This document shows positions 8,226 to 20,792 of a stretch of DNA of 64,000 nucleotides, piece after piece. The stretch lies in the NCBI GenBank assembly GCA_947631915.1, contig CANRNC010000005.1:23789-87788 (forward strand), read 5' to 3'. The notes beneath the pieces were generated by a model, which searched no databases, had not been told where the DNA came from, and worked only from the letters and a program-made list of their open reading frames with translations. Source of the DNA: an uncultured Clostridia bacterium (GTDB lineage: Bacteria > Bacillota > Clostridia > TANB77 > CAG-508). Position numbers and translations under genes: made by a program. Position 1 is the first letter of the stretch. The number at the start of each line of letters is the position of its first letter.

Positions 8226-9878
8226 ATGACACGAGGGAAAAAAAGCGTATTAATAATATTAATTTGTATAATACTAACAATAGAACTAATATCTATACCT
8301 AATAATGTAAAAGCAAGTACATATACGCAAACTACCAAAAACGGAATATCGAATTTTCCAGAAACTTATCAAGCGAAATTAAAAGAACTACAATCATTGC
8401 ATTCTAGCTGGACTTTCACAGCATATTATACAGGAATATCATGGGATGAATTTATTAAACAAGAAACTTCTTTACATTTAAGAAACACGGTAATAAAATC
8501 GTCTAATTCTCTTTGGAAAGATACTTGTAATCAAGTCGCTAGTGGATATGCATGTGCTTCAAGAGCTATTTTACAATATTATTCTGATCCAAGAAATTTT
8601 TTAACAGAATCAGGGATATTTCAATTTTTAGAAATGACATATAATTCAAGTTCACAGACAGAACAAGGTGTTCAAGGAATTATAGCATCAACTTTTATGA
8701 ATAAGAGTATAACATTTAACTTGAATGGGCAAGAAGTTACAATGCCATATTCACAAATAATAATGGAAGCAGCAAGAGAAAGTAAAATGAGTCCATATAG
8801 TATAGCAATAAAGATAAGACAAGAAGTGGGAAATAATGGAAGTAATTCAGTATCTGGATATTATGTCGCAAAAAACGGAACAATATATGAAGGATATTAT
8901 AATTTCTTTAATTATGGAGCATATGATCAGGGAGATGCAATAGCAAACGGACTAGAGTATGCAAAAAATAAAGGATGGACAAACCCATATATAGCTATTG
9001 TAGAAGGAGCAAAGCTAATGGCAAATTCATACACAAATGCAGGGCAAAATACAGCATACTTTTATAAATGGGATGTTGTAGGTAACGAGCCATCACAATT
9101 GTTCAGTCATCAATACATGACAAATATTCAAGATCCATCAAGTCAAGCGAAAAGTTTATTTAATACATACACTACAAATAATTTGTTAACATCACCATTA
9201 AACTTTATAATACCAGTTTTTGAAAATATGCCTAATGTTAACAATTTACCTACTACGATTGATGAGAAGTTATCAACGTCATATTACGTAAATGGTACAG
9301 GCGTGAGATTAAGAGCAACGCCTTCTACTTCAGCTAGTATTCTAGCAACTTTATCTAAAAATGAAGTAGTTACATTATTAGAATGGAATTCAGCAACAGC
9401 TAATGATTTAAAATGGGCAAGGATACAATTATCAAATGGAAATATAGGATATGTAGCAAATAAATACTTACTTCCATGTAATAATAATAACACATCTACA
9501 AAAAATGTTAGAATTGATGGAGAATATCTAATCATTTCTCCAAATAAAACAGTATCGCAAATTGCAAGTGCACTTAATGTAACACAATATTCAGTAACAA
9601 AAAATGATAAGACGCAAGTAGGCACAAATGAAATTATTCAAACAGGATATATATTTACTATGGATAATAAGACATATAAAGTAATTGTTTTAGGAGATGT
9701 CTACACAGATGGAATAATAGATTCAAGAGATTATATGAAAATAAAAAATCATATAATGGCAACAAGTATATTGAATATAGAAGGAATAAAGGCAGCAAAT
9801 ACATATGTAGATGATATAATAGATTCAAGAGATTATATGAAAATAAAAAACCATATAATGGGAACAGAAATATTATAA
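8226..9878 (+). CDS. Secreted cell-wall hydrolase: GH73-like N-acetylglucosaminidase domain, bacterial SH3 domain, C-terminal duplicated dockerin-like repeats
   Basis: Signal peptide MTRGKKSVLIILICIILTIELISIPNNVKA. The central region (…GQNTAYFYKWDV…QYMTNIQDPSSQAKSL) resembles the glucosaminidase YATDP-type motif. The SH3b-like segment is YYVNGTGVRLRATPS…GYVANKYL. There are two 24-aa segments DxxxDGIIDSRDYMKIKNHIM. The ORF-track start at 8160 is probably upstream of the true start. Confidence 0.5.
   Translation: MTRGKKSVLIILICIILTIELISIPNNVKASTYTQTTKNGISNFPETYQAKLKELQSLHSSWTFTAYYTGISWDEFIKQETSLHLRNTVIKSSNSLWKDTCNQVASGYACASRAILQYYSDPRNFLTESGIFQFLEMTYNSSSQTEQGVQGIIASTFMNKSITFNLNGQEVTMPYSQIIMEAARESKMSPYSIAIKIRQEVGNNGSNSVSGYYVAKNGTIYEGYYNFFNYGAYDQGDAIANGLEYAKNKGWTNPYIAIVEGAKLMANSYTNAGQNTAYFYKWDVVGNEPSQLFSHQYMTNIQDPSSQAKSLFNTYTTNNLLTSPLNFIIPVFENMPNVNNLPTTIDEKLSTSYYVNGTGVRLRATPSTSASILATLSKNEVVTLLEWNSATANDLKWARIQLSNGNIGYVANKYLLPCNNNNTSTKNVRIDGEYLIISPNKTVSQIASALNVTQYSVTKNDKTQVGTNEIIQTGYIFTMDNKTYKVIVLGDVYTDGIIDSRDYMKIKNHIMATSILNIEGIKAANTYVDDIIDSRDYMKIKNHIMGTEIL
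9714..9861 (+). repeat. Two 46-bp direct repeats (45/46 identical) encoding the duplicated dockerin-like segments
   Basis: 9714-9759 and 9816-9861: ATAATAGATTCAAGAGATTATATGAAAATAAAAAA(T/C)CATATAATGG. Confidence 0.85.
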
Positions 9879-9896
9879 TATAAGGAGGAAAAACTA

Positions 9897-11165
9897 ATGA
9901 AGAAAACAAAAAAAATTTTAGCACTAGTTATATTATTAATGCTTATTACAACAATATTTTCTAATGTAAAAGCTGCAGGAAGTTTTTCAGTAAGTGCGTC
10001 TTCATCATCATTAACAATAGGGCAAACAGCTACTCTTACTATAACAACTTCAAGTTGTGCTGGACAATTCAGTATAGCGTCATCTAATTCAAATGTTGTA
10101 GCTGTTAGTAAATCATCAACGTTTATAGATGGTAGTGAAAAAATTACTTTAACTGCAAAAACAGCTGGAACGGCAACAATAACAGTAACGCCAGTAGATG
10201 TTTCTGATGAAAGTTATAATAAAATAACAGGTGCAAAGTCAGTTACAATAACTGTAAAAGATAGTAATAATACTACTACTCAACCACCAAATACAACGCA
10301 GCCACCCACAACGACAACAAAATCAGGTGATGCAACGCTGAAGTCTATAACTATTGGATCTAAAACTTATTCAGGATCATCTCTGAAAGATACAATATCG
10401 TATACAGCAGGTGCCACAGTAAGTTCTATAAAAATAAGTGCAACAAAAAACAATAGCAAAGCAACTATAAGTGGAACAGGAACAAAATCTTTGGTGGCAG
10501 GACAAACAAATAAATTTGCAATTACGGTAACTGCTGAAAATGGAACAAAGAAAACATATAGTGTAAATATTATAAGACTAGAAGAAGAATCAAATGTACC
10601 AAATGTAATAGAAGGAGATGTACCAACTCCGGAGGAAACGAAGCTAACTTTAACATCATTAATTATTAAAAACGTCGAATTAGAACCAGAATTTAATCCC
10701 GAAGTATATACTTATGTTGCAAATGTTGAAAACATGAAGGAGCTTGAGATCGATGCAACTGCAAGTAAACCTGATGCTCAAATTAATATAGAAGGAGCTA
10801 CAGATTTAAAGGAAGGCGATAACATAATAAGAATTACAGTTACTCTGGGTGAAGAGAAAGCTGAATACATTGTAGATTTGTATAATACAATACAAGATGA
10901 AATAATGGGAATTACAACAGAAGATGAAAATAATGATAACGATGAAAATAAAATAACATTTAACTCAAAAGAAATAATACTAATTGTATTAGTTGTTGCA
11001 TTAGCTCTAATTTCAATTAGATATATAATTGTTTCATATAAATTGAGTAAGGAAATCGAAGAGTCAACAGATGATATTCTAATGGATGATGACGAATATG
11101 ATATTTTTAAACCTAAAAATCAAAATATTGTCACTAAAAATGAAAAAATAGGCCGACATTTTTAA
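9897..11165 (+). CDS. Membrane-anchored surface protein with Big_2-like Ig domain and two cadherin-like beta-sandwich domains
   Basis: Signal peptide (…SNVKA|AG). Two approximately 85-aa modules end in VTAENGTKKTYSVNIIR and ITVTLGEEKAEYIVDLY, the cadherin-like signature. A Thr/Pro-rich linker (TTTQPPNTTQPPTTTT) and a C-terminal TM helix with a charged tail follow. Confidence 0.6.
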   Translation: MKKTKKILALVILLMLITTIFSNVKAAGSFSVSASSSSLTIGQTATLTITTSSCAGQFSIASSNSNVVAVSKSSTFIDGSEKITLTAKTAGTATITVTPVDVSDESYNKITGAKSVTITVKDSNNTTTQPPNTTQPPTTTTKSGDATLKSITIGSKTYSGSSLKDTISYTAGATVSSIKISATKNNSKATISGTGTKSLVAGQTNKFAITVTAENGTKKTYSVNIIRLEEESNVPNVIEGDVPTPEETKLTLTSLIIKNVELEPEFNPEVYTYVANVENMKELEIDATASKPDAQINIEGATDLKEGDNIIRITVTLGEEKAEYIVDLYNTIQDEIMGITTEDENNDNDENKITFNSKEIILIVLVVALALISIRYIIVSYKLSKEIEESTDDILMDDDEYDIFKPKNQNIVTKNEKIGRHF

Positions 11166-12438: not shown

Positions 12439-13035
12439 ATGGAAATAGATAAAATAAGAGGTATTATTGAAGCTATTTTATTCTGTGCAGGAAGAGTTGT
12501 TACAATTAAGGAGCTAGAACTGGCGGTAGAAATTAATGAAAAAGATATTGTAGAATTAATTAATGATATGAACAAAGAATATAGAGATATTTCACGAGGA
12601 ATAGAAATTATTAGAGTCAATGATGGATATCAAATGTGCACTAAAAAAGAGTACTATGAATATATTTATCCAGTAATAGATAAAAGAAATAAACCGAAGC
12701 TTTCGCAGGCTGCATTAGAAGCTTTAGCAATAATAGCATATAATCCCCGAATAACAAGAGCAGAAATAGAAGCTATAAGAGGAGTATCTTCAGATGCTGT
12801 TATATATAAATTATTAGAATATAACCTGATAGAGGAAGCAGGTAAAATTGATATTTTGGGTAAACCAATGTCATATAGAACAACTGATGAATTTTTAAAA
12901 ATGTTTGGATATGCTAGTTTAGAGGAATTACCTGAACTCCCCAAATATAAAGTAGATGAAAATCAGCAAATTGTTATAGATGATTTGTTAATAGATAGTG
13001 AGCAAAGAGAGGAGAAAGATAATAGTAATGAGTAA
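12439..13035 (+). CDS. scpB: Segregation and condensation protein B
   Basis: ScpB pattern (tandem winged-helix); 198 aa. Confidence 0.85.
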   Translation: MEIDKIRGIIEAILFCAGRVVTIKELELAVEINEKDIVELINDMNKEYRDISRGIEIIRVNDGYQMCTKKEYYEYIYPVIDKRNKPKLSQAALEALAIIAYNPRITRAEIEAIRGVSSDAVIYKLLEYNLIEEAGKIDILGKPMSYRTTDEFLKMFGYASLEELPELPKYKVDENQQIVIDDLLIDSEQREEKDNSNE

Positions 13036-14470
13036 TGAAGATAAAAATTTTGTAAAGGAAGTAACAAATATAGAAGAAGATTTTGCTAAATGGTATACAG
13101 ACATAGTATTAAAAGCAGATTTGGCAGATTATACAGGAACTAAAGGTTGTATAGCTATAAAACCATATGGATATGCTATTTGGGAAAATATACAAAAGTA
13201 TGCAGATGAGTTATTTAAGAAAAATGGAGTAAAGAATGTATATTTTCCAGTTTTAATTCCAGAAAGTTTATTACAAAGAGAAAAGGAGCATGTTGAAGGA
13301 TTTGCACCAGAAGTAGCTATGGTTACAGAAGCTGGTGGAAAAAATCTAGATGAAAAATTATGTATTAGACCAACTTCTGAAACAATGTTTTGTGATTTAT
13401 ATGCTAAGTGGTTAAGCTCTTGGAGAGATTTGCCATTTGTATATAATCAATGGTGTAATGTGTTGAGGTGGGAAAAGGAAACAAAACCATTCCTTCGCTC
13501 TAGAGAGTTTTTATGGCAGGAAGGGCATACTATACATGAAACAAAAGAAGAAGCTGAAAATAGAACTCTTCAAATGTTGGAAATCTATGCAGATGTAATT
13601 GAAAACTTACTTGCTATTCCTGTATTAAAAGGAAGAAAAACAGAAAAAGAAAAATTTGCTGGTGCAGAAGCTACATATACAGTAGAAACATTAATGCATG
13701 ATGGAAGAGCTATTCAAGCGGGAACTTCACATTATTTTGGACAAAACTTTACAAAACCATTTGATGTAAAATTCCAAAACAGATATGGAAAAGAAGAATA
13801 TGCATACCAAACTTCATGGGGGATAAGTACAAGATTAATTGGAGCTGTTATTATGGCTCATGGAGATAATCGTGGACTTAAACTTCCACCAAGAGTTGCA
13901 CCAATACAAGTTGTTGTAGTTCCAGTTATGATGAATAAAGATGGAGTAAAAGAAAAAGCTACAGAAGTATATGAAAAATTAAGAGACGAATTTAGAGCAG
14001 AAGTGGATTTAAGAGATAATTATACTCCAGGATATAAATTTAATGATTGGGAATTAAGAGGCGTTCCAGTAAGAATAGAATTAGGACCACGCGATATTGA
14101 AAATAATGTGTGTGTAATGGTAAGACGTGATACTTTAGAGAAGCAAACAGTAAGTTTAGATGAAGTAAATAATAAATTGAAAGAATTATTAGAAGATATT
14201 CAAAAAAATATGTATGCTCAATGTGAGAAAATAAGAGAAGAAAGAACAACGACAGCAACAAACTTGGATGAATTCGTTAAAAATTTAGAAGAAAAACAGG
14301 GATATATAAAAACCATGTGGTGTGGAGATACAGCTTGTGAAGATAAAATAAAAGAATTGACTGGAGCACATTCAAGATGTATACCATTTAAACAAGAAAA
14401 GATAGGAAATAAATGTGTATGTTGTGGAAAAAATGCAACTACAATGGTAGTATGGGGAAGACAATATTAA
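13028..14470 (+). CDS. proS: Proline--tRNA ligase, archaeal/eukaryote-like short form
   Basis: ProRS-like sequence throughout; C-terminal zinc-binding CxxC (CVCCGK); ATG at 13028 overlaps scpB stop by 8 nt. Confidence 0.88.
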   Translation: MSNEDKNFVKEVTNIEEDFAKWYTDIVLKADLADYTGTKGCIAIKPYGYAIWENIQKYADELFKKNGVKNVYFPVLIPESLLQREKEHVEGFAPEVAMVTEAGGKNLDEKLCIRPTSETMFCDLYAKWLSSWRDLPFVYNQWCNVLRWEKETKPFLRSREFLWQEGHTIHETKEEAENRTLQMLEIYADVIENLLAIPVLKGRKTEKEKFAGAEATYTVETLMHDGRAIQAGTSHYFGQNFTKPFDVKFQNRYGKEEYAYQTSWGISTRLIGAVIMAHGDNRGLKLPPRVAPIQVVVVPVMMNKDGVKEKATEVYEKLRDEFRAEVDLRDNYTPGYKFNDWELRGVPVRIELGPRDIENNVCVMVRRDTLEKQTVSLDEVNNKLKELLEDIQKNMYAQCEKIREERTTTATNLDEFVKNLEEKQGYIKTMWCGDTACEDKIKELTGAHSRCIPFKQEKIGNKCVCCGKNATTMVVWGRQY

Positions 14471-14637: not shown

Positions 14638-16048
14638 ATGGGAGAGATGCAGATGATAAAAAAATATTTAACAGGTTTAATTTCATTTATATTAATAATG
14701 GGAATATGTACAAATGCAATGGCAACGGAATTGAAAACGAGTTTAAAAACAATAGAACAAGCTAGTGAGACAAAGTATTTAGAGAATGATCAAGGTTATA
14801 TATCAAAAACAATAGTAAATTCGAATCCAGATGCGGGAGAAGTAACCATAGAATTAAAATTGTCTAATACTAAAAAAGAAAGTGATGTAGTAAAAAGTAC
14901 AGAGATTTTTTTAGTTTTAGATAATTCAATTAGTATGGAACATAAAGCTACTGAAACTACAACAAGAAAATCAATTATAGGTAATTCTGCAACAAGTCTA
15001 ATAAATAAGATTTATGATAGTACATCAAATGTAAAAGTTGGAATTGTTAGATTTGCATCAAAACTGTCTCGGAACACTAGAGGATACAGGAAAAGAATAT
15101 AATCAACCGAATGCTGCTAATTTAATGTGTGCTTTGACGGATAATAAAAATTCAGTAACTAATGCTATTTCACAATATAACTCAATGGATACTGAAGCTG
15201 GAACTAATATTTATGCTGGTTTAAAAAAAGCATATGAGAATTTTTCATCAGAGAATAATAATAAAATTATAATTCTATTAACTGATGGCGTTCCAACAGA
15301 ATATACAGAATCTTATAATGATTGGGCTTCAGAAGAATCTGTTGATAGCAATACTAAAAAATATATTGAAAATATAGGTAATAAAGTTACGCTAATTTCT
15401 TTAATGTCAGGTATAGCTGATGGAGAAGAAGATTCGGATGATTTAGAAAGAGTTGAAGGGATATTCGGAACTAAAGAAAAGCCTACTTCTGGTTATTTTT
15501 ATAATATATCAGATGTTGATATAGAAAATGTTGTTAATAATGATGTATTTAGTAATGTAATGGAAAAAGTACAAAATCCAATAAATACAGTAAAAGTAGT
15601 TGACTATTTTCCAGAGGACATAATAGATAATTTTGAATTTTCTTATGTAGGAAATCCAAGTGTAGGAACATCATCAGAAGAAATTGATCCAGAAACCAAG
15701 ACAATAACATGGAATATAGATACATTAAAAGGTGAAGGAATAGCAACATTAAGATATAAATTAAAGATTAAAGATATGCAAAATGCAAAATTATTAAATA
15801 AAACAATAGCAACAAATGAAAAAGTAGTATTAACATATAAAGATACAGGTTTAAAAGATTATACAGTAACATTAACAAGTAGTCCAAAAATTCAATTAGC
15901 AGAAGTTAAAGTAGTAGATGATACTAAATTAAATGGTAAATTACCACAAACAGGAGAAAGCATTATAATAGCTATCAGTATTGTAATAATAACATTAGTA
16001 TTATTAATTATATATAGAAAGTACAGGGATTATAAAGATATAAAATAG
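14638..16048 (+). pseudogene. VWA-domain LPXTG surface adhesin (pilus-tip/adhesin-like), interrupted by +1 frameshift in A4 run 15060-15063
   Basis: N-terminal ORF (signal peptide, MIDAS DNSIS, VGIVRFAS) stops at 15102; frame +1 ORF from 15038 continues VWA (TLEDTGKEYNQPNAANL…GTNIYAGLKKA…IIILLTDGVPT) and ends with LPQTG + TM + YRKYRDYKDIK. Deleting one A gives continuous VGIVRFASNCLGTLEDTGKEY. Confidence 0.65.
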
Positions 16049-16074
16049 TAAGAAAAAATAAATTATACAAAAAA

Positions 16075-16101
16075 TTAGCACTTGGTATTGACAAGTGCTA
16101 A
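16075..16101 (+). promoter_or_regulatory. CIRCE operator 1 (HrcA site) TTAGCACTT-N9-AAGTGCTAA
   Basis: Perfect 9-bp inverted repeat with 9-nt spacer; overlaps the -35 hexamer. Confidence 0.85.
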
Positions 16102-16114
16102 TTTTTGTTATAAT
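16088..16114 (+). promoter_or_regulatory. groESL sigma-A promoter (TTGACA … TGtTATAAT)
   Basis: -35 16088-16093; extended -10 TGTTATAAT 16106-16114 (15-nt spacer; alternative -10 TAATAT with 17-nt spacer). Confidence 0.5.
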
Positions 16115-16117
16115 ATA

Positions 16118-16144
16118 TTAGCAGTCAATCAAAAAGAGTGCCAA
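16118..16144 (+). promoter_or_regulatory. CIRCE operator 2 TTAGCAGTC-N9-GAGTGCCAA
   Basis: Second CIRCE-like inverted repeat (8/9 arm match to consensus TTAGCACTC-N9-GAGTGCTAA) immediately downstream of -10. Confidence 0.7.
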
Positions 16145-16187: not shown

Positions 16188-16499
<312 letters not shown>

Positions 16500-16528: not shown

Positions 16529-16545
16529 GGCAAGCATTGCTTGCC
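16529..16545 (+). other. Intercistronic groES-groEL stem-loop (GGCAAGC-att-GCTTGCC)
   Basis: 7-bp stem in groES-groEL spacer, no T-run; probable mRNA processing/stability element. Confidence 0.3.
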
Positions 16546-16570: not shown

Positions 16571-18218
<1,648 letters not shown>

Positions 18219-18240: not shown

Positions 18241-18270
18241 GGGGCACGGGGTACCGTGCCCATTTTATAT
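18241..18270 (+). terminator. Rho-independent terminator after groEL
   Basis: GGGCACGG-ggta-CCGTGCCC followed by ATTTTATATT. Confidence 0.7.
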
Positions 18271-18292: not shown

Positions 18293-18321
18293 TTGACATA
18301 TTTCTGCAAAAATCATATAAT
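18293..18321 (+). promoter_or_regulatory. Sigma-A promoter TTGACA-17-TATAAT for arsR-type regulator/ATPase operon
   Basis: Consensus -35 and -10 hexamers with 17-nt spacer. Confidence 0.6.
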
Positions 18322-18323
18322 AT

Positions 18324-18343
18324 ATATGAATAGTTGTTCATAT
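18324..18343 (+). promoter_or_regulatory. Candidate ArsR/SmtB operator: inverted repeat ATATGAA-N6-TTCATAT
   Basis: Perfect 7-bp arms immediately downstream of -10, position typical for autoregulated metalloregulator. Confidence 0.45.
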
Positions 18344-18367
18344 GTTAAAATGAAAGGAAATATAAAT

Positions 18368-18733
18368 ATGGGAAAAGAAACAAACGAAGAAATTCAAGAG
18401 CAAAATATTATCAGACTTGATACTGTGGAAAATGTTAAAAAAACACTTCCAGAGGATGATGAGATATTTGAGTTAGCTGAACTTTTTAAAATGTTTGCAG
18501 ATTCTACAAGAATGAAAATAATTTGTGCACTTAAAGAACAGGAATTATGTGTGGGAGAAATAGCATTTATTACGAATACCACACAAAGTGCTATATCACA
18601 CCAATTAAGAATACTTAAACAGTCTAAACTTGTTAAATACAGGAAAGAAGGAAAAATTGTTTATTATAGTCTAGATGATGAACATGTAATTGAAATCTTA
18701 ATGAAAGGTCGTGAACACATTGAAGAAATATAG
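18368..18733 (+). CDS. ArsR/SmtB-family metal-responsive transcriptional repressor
   Basis: HTH_5 signature; RBS GAAAGGAAA then ATG 18368; ORF-track start 18293 runs through the promoter. Confidence 0.8.
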   Translation: MGKETNEEIQEQNIIRLDTVENVKKTLPEDDEIFELAELFKMFADSTRMKIICALKEQELCVGEIAFITNTTQSAISHQLRILKQSKLVKYRKEGKIVYYSLDDEHVIEILMKGREHIEEI

Positions 18734-20792
18734 ATTTGATATAATAGATTTAGATTGTGCACAATGTGCTAAAGAAGTTGAGGAAGCAATAAATGAAATT
18801 GAAGGGATTCAAAATTGCATAGTAAATTTTGGAACAGGAAAAATTACTTTAGAATCAAATTTAGCAAATACTTTAGAAGAGATAAGAAAAGTAACTGCTA
18901 AAGTAGAACCTGACTGTAAAATAAAAGAAATAGGAGAGAAAGTAAAAGAAAATAAAGATTATGAGGTAGTGAGACTAGTAATTGGAATTATATTGGCGAT
19001 AATTGGATTCCAAGGGATTATACATAATGAAATAATATCTAATGCTTTTATAATTGGAGCCTATGGTATTTTGTTATATAGAACCTTAAAAAAAGCAATA
19101 AAGCAATTAAAAGGAAAAATTATAGATGAAAATTTATTGATGGTAGTTTCATGTATTGGTGCATATATAGTTGGGGAAAAGCTAGAAGGATTAATGGTTA
19201 TTCTCCTATTTGAAATAGGAAAAATATTAGAAACAAAGGCAATTTCGAGGTCAAGGAAATCTATTAAAGATTTAATGGATATAAAGCCTAAATATGCAAA
19301 TTTAAAAGCTGAAAATGGAGAAACTAAACAAGTTGAACCACAAAATGTAAAAATTGGAGATATAATAATTGTAAAAGAAGGAGAGGAAATACCACTAGAT
19401 GGTATTGTTATTTCTGGAAATGCCTATTTAAATACATCAGCATTAACAGGAGAGTCAAAATTACAAGAAGTAAAAAAAGATAGTACTGTACTTTCAGGAA
19501 GTATTAATCAAGATGGACTAATTGAGATTAAAGTTACAGCTAATTACGAGAATGGAACTGTAAATAGAATTTTAGAATTAGTTGAGCGAGCTACAGATAA
19601 AAAAGCTAAGACAGAGACTTATGTTACAAAATTAGCAAAAATATATACACCTATTGTAATAGTATTAGCAGTGATTGTTGGAATATTTATGCCAGTGGTA
19701 GTTCCACAAATTAGTTATTCAGAAAGTATTTATAGAGCTTTAACATTTTTAGTAATTGCATGTCCATGCTCTATTGCAATATCAGTACCTTTATCATATT
19801 TCTCTGGAATAGGCAAAGCATCTAAAAAGGGAATTTTAATAAAAGGTAGTGACTTTTTGGATGGTCTAAAGAATGTAAACCACATAATATTTGATAAGAC
19901 AGGAACGATTACAACAGGAAAGTTTAAAGTTTCTGATATTAATACACTAAATAGTGAATTATCAAAAGATGATGTATTAAAATATGTGGCAATAGGGGAA
20001 AACTTTTCAAACCACCCATTAGCAAAGTCAATACTAGAAAAATATTCAGTTGACATAGATACATGTGAAGTGAGAAACTTAAAAGAAGTTTCTGGAAAAG
20101 GCATTGAATATGAAATGGATTCTAAAAAAATAAAAGTTGGTAATAAAAAATTTATTCAAGAAGACTTAAAAAATAAATTAGAAGAAGTTGATTCATCAGG
20201 TACAATTATTTATTTATCAATAGATGATTTTGCAAAAGGTGCTATAATATTAGAAGATCAAGTAAAAGAGAATGTAAAAGAAGTTACTTTAAAGTTAAGA
20301 AAAATGGGAATTAAGTCAATGATGTTTACAGGTGATACACAAGAGTCAGCACAAGAAGTTGCAAAAATAGCAGGAATTGATGAAATAAAAGCACAAATGT
20401 TACCACAAGATAAATTTGACGAATTAGAAAAAATAATAAATAAAAATGAAAAAGGAAAAAAAGTTGCATTTGTAGGTGATGGTATAAATGATAGTCCAGT
20501 TTTAGCAAGGGCAGATATAGGAATATCTATGGGTGGAGTTGGTGCATCATCTGCTATAGAGGCATCTGATGTAGTACTCATGACTGATGAAATAAATAAG
20601 ATATTGGAAGGCATAGAAATTTCTAGGAAAACAAATAGGATTATAAAGCAAAATCTAATATTTGCAATAACAATAAAAATAATAATTTTAATATTTTCAA
20701 TATTTGGTATTTCAAACATGTGGCAGGCCGTATTTGCAGATGTAGGAACTACAATAATTACAATATTCAATACTTTAAGAATATTAATATAA
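18711..20792 (+). CDS. Heavy-metal translocating P1B-type ATPase (Cd/Zn/Co/Pb-type, CadA/ZntA-like)
   Basis: N-terminal HMA with CAQC, TM CPC motif (ACPCSIA), DKTGTIT phosphorylation site, SNHPLAKSI, GDGINDSP; overlaps regulator by 23 nt. Confidence 0.9.
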   Translation: MNTLKKYRFDIIDLDCAQCAKEVEEAINEIEGIQNCIVNFGTGKITLESNLANTLEEIRKVTAKVEPDCKIKEIGEKVKENKDYEVVRLVIGIILAIIGFQGIIHNEIISNAFIIGAYGILLYRTLKKAIKQLKGKIIDENLLMVVSCIGAYIVGEKLEGLMVILLFEIGKILETKAISRSRKSIKDLMDIKPKYANLKAENGETKQVEPQNVKIGDIIIVKEGEEIPLDGIVISGNAYLNTSALTGESKLQEVKKDSTVLSGSINQDGLIEIKVTANYENGTVNRILELVERATDKKAKTETYVTKLAKIYTPIVIVLAVIVGIFMPVVVPQISYSESIYRALTFLVIACPCSIAISVPLSYFSGIGKASKKGILIKGSDFLDGLKNVNHIIFDKTGTITTGKFKVSDINTLNSELSKDDVLKYVAIGENFSNHPLAKSILEKYSVDIDTCEVRNLKEVSGKGIEYEMDSKKIKVGNKKFIQEDLKNKLEEVDSSGTIIYLSIDDFAKGAIILEDQVKENVKEVTLKLRKMGIKSMMFTGDTQESAQEVAKIAGIDEIKAQMLPQDKFDELEKIINKNEKGKKVAFVGDGINDSPVLARADIGISMGGVGASSAIEASDVVLMTDEINKILEGIEISRKTNRIIKQNLIFAITIKIIILIFSIFGISNMWQAVFADVGTTIITIFNTLRILI

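Follow-up and report, generated by a model that had tools for sequence, protein, structure and literature searches.

Two putative HrcA operators bracket the predicted groESL promoter of an uncultured Clostridia bacterium

RESULTS

The groESL operon and its surroundings

The window, as we term the whole stretch of DNA analyzed here, comprises 64,000 nucleotides (nt) from an uncultured Clostridia bacterium and includes a groES-groEL operon on the plus strand. The features of this operon and of the region immediately upstream are as follows.

16069-16074: A-tract AAAAAA, which precedes CIRCE1
16075..16101, no strand assigned: CIRCE1, TTAGCACTT-ggtattgac-AAGTGCTAA, a perfect palindrome holding the -35 hexamer; putative upstream auxiliary HrcA operator
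16088..16093, plus strand: -35 hexamer TTGACA of the groESL promoter, unchanged in the closest relative
16111..16116, plus strand: -10 hexamer TAATAT, with a 17-nt spacer; reported by the promoter scan
16118..16144, no strand assigned: CIRCE2, TTAGCAGTC-aatcaaaaa-GAGTGCCAA; putative primary, ancestral HrcA operator
16203..16209, plus strand: ribosome-binding site AAGGAGG, 8 nt before the groES ATG and kept in the closest relative
16218..16499, plus strand: groES (93 aa, Cpn10; Pfam PF00166, E = 1.4e-30)
16584..18218, plus strand: groEL (544 aa, Cpn60; Pfam PF00118, E = 2.9e-81)
18242..18261, plus strand: terminator-like GC-rich hairpin (8-bp stem, 7 G-C pairs) followed by T-rich ATTTTATATT; end of the groESL operon

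The leader between CIRCE2 and the ribosome-binding site is AT-rich and about 58 nt long. The spacer between groES and groEL contains a perfect GC-rich hairpin, GGCAAGCATTGCTTGCC, at 16529-16545, which the scan reports as terminator-like on the minus strand only and which may serve as an mRNA processing or stability element. A tblastn search with seven HrcA proteins returned no match to hrcA in the 64-kb window, and dnaK was not found within it.

Several features of the neighboring genes, all on the plus strand, were recorded along the way. Upstream, scpB (12439-13035) overlaps the listed start of proS (12998-14470) by 38 nt, and the prolyl-tRNA synthetase encoded by the latter is of the archaeal/eukaryote-type class II, with a ProRS-C_1 domain. 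Between proS and groES lies a gene for a vWA/GBS104-like adhesin of the tip-pilin type with a C-terminal LPQTG sorting signal, which is split by a frameshift into two overlapping open reading frames (ORFs; 14638-15102 and 15038-16048). Downstream of the operon, within 18293-20792, an ORF for an ArsR-family (HTH_5) repressor overlaps that of a heavy-metal P-type ATPase with an HMA domain. At the listed start of the repressor ORF, positions 18293-18321 form a perfect consensus promoter (TTGACA-17-TATAAT), and the repressor is probably translated from a start codon downstream of the listed TTG. The frameshift split of the adhesin gene is the same in three independent ENA assemblies, and the groESL promoter region is likewise identical in three independent ENA assemblies that encode an identical GroES, which rules out an assembly artifact.

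Two CIRCE elements upstream of groES

The preliminary description of this region placed two CIRCE-type elements ahead of groES, and both are found where it located them, with matching positions and the same 16-nt gap between them (16102-16117, TTTTTGTTATAATATA). The elements lie 143 nt (CIRCE1) and 100 nt (CIRCE2) upstream of the groES ATG, and their starts are 43 bp apart. Each deviates from the consensus TTAGCACTC-N9-GAGTGCTAA by two mismatches, agreeing with it at 16 of the 18 specified positions. The arms of CIRCE1 are palindromic at 9 of 9 positions; CIRCE2, with its 9-nt spacer, carries TGCCAA, which departs from a usually conserved outer position of the arm.

CIRCE1 and CIRCE2 are the sole sites in the 64-kb window that match the consensus with three or fewer mismatches, and the next-best CIRCE-like sites have five. 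None of 100 dinucleotide shuffles of the window produced a match at the same threshold, and a model based on composition predicts 7.7e-4 (about 0.0008) sites with two or fewer mismatches per 64 kb. The agreement with consensus and the placement of the two elements support their identification as bona fide CIRCE-type sites that bracket what appears to be a sigma-A-type groESL promoter.

Placement of the promoter hexamers

The hexamer TTGACA has five of its bases in the spacer of CIRCE1 and one in its right arm. The earlier claim that a perfect upstream CIRCE overlaps the -35 is thereby borne out, "perfect" referring to the 9-of-9 palindrome and not to the consensus, to which there are two mismatches. 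The companion claim, that the second element comes right after the -10, also holds, with CIRCE2 starting 1 nt past TAATAT.

An alternative -10 hexamer, TATAAT (16109-16114), overlaps TAATAT; it is preceded by TGT and stands at a 15-nt spacing from TTGACA. For a comparison of the two, we used all 44 distinct collected promoters in which TTGACA is followed by 24 nt and then by a CIRCE. In 44 of 44 promoters, the spacer has T at position 18, A at position 19, and T at position 23, and because these invariant bases match -12T, -11A, and -7T of the hexamer spaced by 17 nt, the -10 is best placed at 16111-16116. TATAAT is disfavored by this comparison and is kept as an overlapping alternative; depending on the hexamer, CIRCE2 starts 1 to 3 nt past the -10. 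Transcription is predicted to start near 16122-16124, within the left arm of CIRCE2, which would place CIRCE2 at about -5 to +22 from the predicted start. As to a second promoter downstream of CIRCE2, the promoter scan lists none, and conservation with the closest relative does not extend to that stretch.

Conservation of the elements in the closest relative

The closest relative, L001, is a Clostridia genome with a G+C content of 29% and a GroES that is 97% identical to that of the window. It also has a pair of CIRCE elements (TTAGCACTTtatattgacAAGTGCTAA and TTAGCAATCaataaatatGAGTGCCAA), likewise 43 bp apart. Within the region corresponding to 16075-16144, the two genomes differ at 1 of 36 arm positions versus 7 of 34 non-arm positions (Fisher p = 0.026, from two sequences only). 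In CIRCE1, the arms are identical and two spacer bases are changed; in CIRCE2, there are one arm change and three spacer changes. This pattern of substitution, with arms kept and spacers free to vary, is that expected of protein-binding half-sites, insofar as two sequences can suggest it.

The similarity between the window and L001 starts only at the A-tract preceding CIRCE1. The gene upstream of groES in L001 is proS, and the window instead has the frameshifted vWA/LPXTG adhesin gene in between. Because this gene is missing in L001, where proS abuts CIRCE1, it is regarded as an insertion between proS and groES.

Ancestry of the two sites

A scan of genomes for GroES yielded 80 species-level loci, all from uncultured Clostridia or Oscillospiraceae-type metagenome-assembled genomes, and the 400 nt upstream of each groES were searched for CIRCE elements with four or fewer mismatches. 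One CIRCE was found at 72 loci, two at 5, and none at 3, which agrees with the initial view that a single CIRCE is the usual arrangement. Two good CIRCE sites occur at only one of the 80 related loci, that of L001.

The distance from the start of TTGACA to the CIRCE is exactly 30 nt in low-GC relatives that have a single element (32 nt in a few), and it is likewise 30 nt in the window, from TTGACA (16088) to CIRCE2 (16118). The left arm TTAGCAGTC, which is typical of these single-CIRCE relatives, is present in CIRCE2 as well. The shared position and the shared arm indicate that CIRCE2 is the orthologue of the usual single operator and that CIRCE1 is the addition. By this comparison, CIRCE1 is a putative lineage-specific addition, built around a pre-existing -35 hexamer.

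We considered a 43-bp tandem duplication of a CIRCE and its flank as the origin of the pair; when compared by eye, the two units are alike in their arms only. Conversion in place of the DNA flanking the -35 is more likely, because TTGACA is already found at the equivalent distance from the CIRCE in relatives with one site.

Two further elements were observed in the promoters of relatives. Three higher-GC relatives (L039, L040, and L054) have weak second CIRCE-like sites 95 to 151 bp upstream of the main CIRCE. In these sites, the left arm TTAGCACTC is intact and the right arm is degenerate, all three mismatches falling in one arm, and they may be decayed or auxiliary half-sites. In addition, the groES promoters of low-GC relatives contain a direct repeat with an 11-bp period, TGTGAA-N5-TGTGAA, just upstream of the -35 or of the upstream CIRCE, examples of which are as follows.

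L002, 2834-2849
L009, 2898-2913
L078, 2888-2903
L095, just upstream of the tandem CIRCE

This repeat occurs 10 times in the groES promoters of relatives versus 2 times elsewhere in 429 kb, and there is none in the 64-kb window. Its geometry recalls that of sites for response regulators of the OmpR/WalR type.

Recurrence of the tandem layout in metagenomes

Metagenomes were scanned with the pattern TTAGCA-N7-TTGACA-NN-TGCTAA, followed by a gap of 12 to 20 nt and TTAGCA-N15-TGCYAA. The tandem layout was recovered from at least 120 contigs, corresponding to at least 74 distinct tandem sequences. The dual layout had been judged unusual in the preliminary description, a judgment that fails more widely in view of these contigs and of the dual-CIRCE promoters already published. 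Among the matches listed, the first gene downstream is distributed as follows.

HrcA: 59 contigs
GroES, 61-74% identical to that of the window: 36 contigs
FUSC_2-family membrane protein: 17 contigs
Unclassified: 4 contigs
None: 4 contigs

Thus, the layout is found most often before hrcA, in 59 of the 116 classifiable contigs among the matches listed; the assignment to HrcA was confirmed with Pfam PF01628 on three representatives. The TGTGAA-N5-TGTGAA repeat is present in 54 of the 120 tandem matches listed, apparently those of the groES and FUSC types.

Although gaps of 12 to 20 nt were allowed, those between the two CIRCEs are solely 16 to 19 nt among the matches listed, giving start-to-start spacings of 43, 44, 45, or 46 bp across lineages. 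The distinct groES-type sequences listed have gaps of 16 nt (15 sequences) or 18 nt (2 sequences), and the distinct hrcA-type sequences listed have gaps of 16 nt (19 sequences), 17 nt (2), 18 nt (6), or 19 nt (21). The upstream CIRCE is generally the weaker of the two among the matches listed, with a mode of 3 to 4 mismatches versus 1 to 2 for the downstream CIRCE. Even so, where the search pattern specified no base, the upstream site in the listed matches favors that of the consensus: position 21 is G in 38 of 74 sequences, and position 8 is T in 48 of 74, in DNA with a background of about 28% GC. With two mismatches and a 9-of-9 palindrome, CIRCE1 of the window is among the best of its class in the matches listed.

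Some groES and hrcA promoters closely resemble one another. L126 (groES) and L119 (hrcA), seemingly from one lineage, have the same upstream CIRCE (TTAGCAATAACTATTGACATTTGCTAA) and differ little in their -10 regions, and a similar likeness between groES and hrcA promoters is seen when L189 is compared with L199, L200, and L087. These resemblances suggest that the whole operator-promoter module may have been copied or homogenized between the groES and hrcA operons. Since groES and hrcA modules are nearly identical in at least one lineage, the dual design can be regulon-wide where it is present.

A tandem-CIRCE promoter also stands before a gene for a 340-aa FUSC_2 (PF13515) membrane protein, which is followed by a 180-aa ORF, with no groES or hrcA. 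Loci of this type, about 25% GC, are L161 (promoter at 9221-9290 and gene at 9340-10362), L162 (reverse strand), and 15 further human-gut contigs. The FUSC_2 gene may be an unrecognized member of the HrcA regulon.

DISCUSSION

Regulation proposed for the groESL promoter

The arrangement is best read as a single sigma-A-type promoter (TTGACA, 17 nt, and TAATAT overlapping TATAAT) under the control of two HrcA operators, and we consider it probable that both would be occupied in the absence of stress. Under such conditions, GroEL would keep HrcA active, and HrcA dimers would sit on both CIRCEs, holding expression from a near-consensus promoter at a low basal level. HrcA on CIRCE1 would deny sigma region 4 access to the -35, and HrcA on CIRCE2 would block open-complex formation or promoter escape. 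Upon heat shock or the accumulation of unfolded proteins, GroEL would be titrated, HrcA would become inactive, both sites would be cleared, and the promoter would fire; a GroEL titration loop of this kind was reportedly described in Bacillus subtilis by Mogk et al. in 1997. A pair of sites would be expected to reduce basal expression and to make the switch sharper, and the two may act cooperatively, as the preliminary description suggested.

The 43 bp between the starts of the two elements amount to about 4.1 helical turns, which would put the HrcA dimers on the same face of the DNA. The spacings of 44 to 46 bp in other lineages indicate that the distance follows the position of the -10 and the geometry of the promoter and not a phase rule. 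With spacing that varies from 43 to 46 bp, neither strict helical phasing nor a fixed same-face geometry of dimer-dimer contact appears to be supported.

In a broader reading, uncultured low-GC gut Clostridia would possess an uncatalogued promoter-operator cassette, of which the pair would be an example. The cassette would consist of an auxiliary CIRCE around the -35 and a primary CIRCE fixed 30 nt after the start of TTGACA; it would be shared, and in places be nearly identical, among groES, hrcA, and a FUSC-family gene, and in the lineage of the window its auxiliary site would have been refined to a perfect palindrome, would serve in addition as terminator of the upstream gene, and would stand where relatives have the TGTGAA-N5-TGTGAA site. 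Taken jointly, these propositions are tentative, and we lean against their all being correct. If they are, they imply copying at the level of modules and an expanded HrcA regulon.

CIRCE1 as a possible terminator

The sequence around CIRCE1 has features of an intrinsic terminator as well as those of an operator.

16069..16109, plus strand: A-tract, CIRCE1 hairpin, and T-tract (AAAAAA...TTTTTGTT); possible intrinsic terminator of the gene ending at 16048

As RNA, CIRCE1 would fold into a hairpin with a 10-bp stem containing 4 G-C pairs, with a stability of -13.2 kcal/mol for the core and -18.9 kcal/mol with the A/U flanks (z = -5 to -7), and UUUUUGUU lies directly 3' of this hairpin. The hairpin comes 26 nt past the stop codon of the adhesin gene at 16048, and in L001 the stop codon of proS is 19 nt before the same hairpin; no other hairpin occurs in the interval between stop codon and CIRCE1 in either the window or L001. 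The consensus terminator scan reports the CIRCE1 hairpin on the minus strand only. CIRCE1 probably doubles as the terminator of the upstream gene, a role in which it would insulate groESL, and part of its perfect symmetry may have been selected for RNA structure instead of HrcA binding. Among the metagenomic matches listed, an A-run and not a T-run comes after the upstream CIRCE in most cases, which indicates that a terminator role is local and does not explain why the class exists.

It might be argued from these features that CIRCE2 is the sole working HrcA operator and that CIRCE1 is mainly an intrinsic terminator or insulator, of a bidirectional type, that happens to resemble a CIRCE. The stable hairpin between an A-tract and UUUUUGUU, its detection as terminator-like on the minus strand, the nearness of the upstream stop codons in both genomes with no other hairpin between, and the sufficiency of a single CIRCE in most relatives all speak for this possibility. 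We nevertheless regard it as improbable: termination does not call for TTAGCAC...GTGCTAA around a 9-nt spacer, so good a match being predicted 7.7e-4 times per 64 kb, and a CIRCE with an embedded -35 recurs in at least 74 distinct sequences, most of which have the A-run and hence are not terminators. Furthermore, the two roles are compatible, such that termination mostly adds a function to CIRCE1 rather than replacing one.

Action at the RNA level and chance occurrence

Control by two DNA operators is also to be weighed against action within the transcript, whereby a CIRCE hairpin in the groESL leader would set mRNA stability or translation. An effect of CIRCE on mRNA stability has reportedly been seen in B. 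subtilis (Yuan and Wong, in 1995, cited in PMC4585701), and CIRCE2 is placed right where the predicted leader begins; however, CIRCE1 is upstream of the -10 and so outside the groESL transcript, and the predicted start inside the left arm of CIRCE2 would truncate the hairpin, which even when intact is weak (-4.7 kcal/mol). An Rfam search of the whole window at gathering thresholds yielded no RNA element, T-boxes included. On these grounds, an RNA-level explanation is highly unlikely.

That the two elements are functionless palindromes arising by chance in AT-rich intergenic DNA is least credible of all and appears effectively refuted, for although the window is 28% GC and short AT-rich inverted repeats are abundant (30 pairs in 350 bp), the shuffled sequences contain no match, two sites fall 16 nt apart at the one promoter where a CIRCE is expected, and the arms are kept in L001 while the flanks have diverged.

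Implications of the dual-operator arrangement

The preferred interpretation, of one promoter under two HrcA operators, illustrates a route by which a second repressor site can arise in a heat-shock promoter, namely conversion of the DNA around its -35. The design is rare among the nearest 80 species, yet it is widespread in uncultured low-GC gut Firmicutes. For the annotation of HrcA regulons, it is relevant that the upstream sites are weaker, typically with 3 to 4 mismatches, and readily overlooked. Where groESL promoters are used as tools for heat-inducible expression, little leakage and strong induction are predicted from a near-consensus promoter with two operators. The general understanding of HrcA/CIRCE regulation is unchanged by the finding. 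Our literature search, which was thin on older primary papers, found no description in Clostridia of a cassette with a -35 inside one CIRCE and a second CIRCE at +1.

Comparison with known systems

The canonical groESL operons of the B. subtilis and Clostridium type have a single CIRCE with the same 9-N9-9 consensus and the same target operon as the elements of the window. Their operator lies just past the -10, over the start of a sigma-A promoter, and CIRCE2 is its positional orthologue, as in the 72 of 80 relatives with one site. The window differs from this canonical arrangement in its extra, equally good CIRCE, which is situated 43 bp upstream and holds the -35. The low-GC relatives have a different upstream element, TGTGAA-N5-TGTGAA, which the window is without.

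Chaperone promoters with two operators are an established kind. In Lactococcus lactis, the promoter of the dnaK operon is overlapped by two CIRCE elements, and all other chaperone operons of lactic acid bacteria then known had a single CIRCE (PMC1676014). Two CIRCE elements also lie upstream of hrcA in Lactobacillus plantarum (PMC3842655). The L. lactis dnaK operon (hrcA-grpE-dnaK) and L. plantarum hrcA resemble the window in having two CIRCEs per sigma-A promoter in a low-GC Gram-positive organism. The cases differ in operon and in lineage: those in lactic acid bacteria concern the dnaK/hrcA operon, whereas that in the window concerns groESL in an uncultured Clostridia lineage. In Streptomyces, two copies of CIRCE are present upstream of groES1 and in the groEL2 promoter (PMC13284173). 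The Streptomyces groES1-groEL1 and groEL2 genes are thus like groES of the window in being preceded by two copies, but they belong to high-GC Actinobacteria, with the core GCACTC-N9-GAGTGC and a different promoter geometry.

Other chaperone promoters combine two repressors. Dual repression by CtsR and HrcA is reportedly found in staphylococci and streptococci, as set out by Chastanet et al. in 2003. At the groESL promoter of Campylobacter jejuni, HrcA has been footprinted over the core promoter and start site and binds cooperatively with a second repressor, HspR, which is bound upstream (PMC7464140). The combination of HspR and HrcA at groESL in C. jejuni and Helicobacter pylori (PMC7464140) parallels the arrangement in the window, in which there is likewise an upstream repressor site together with an HrcA site over the core promoter. 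Unlike these promoters, which use two different repressors, the window has two sites that both match the same repressor, HrcA.
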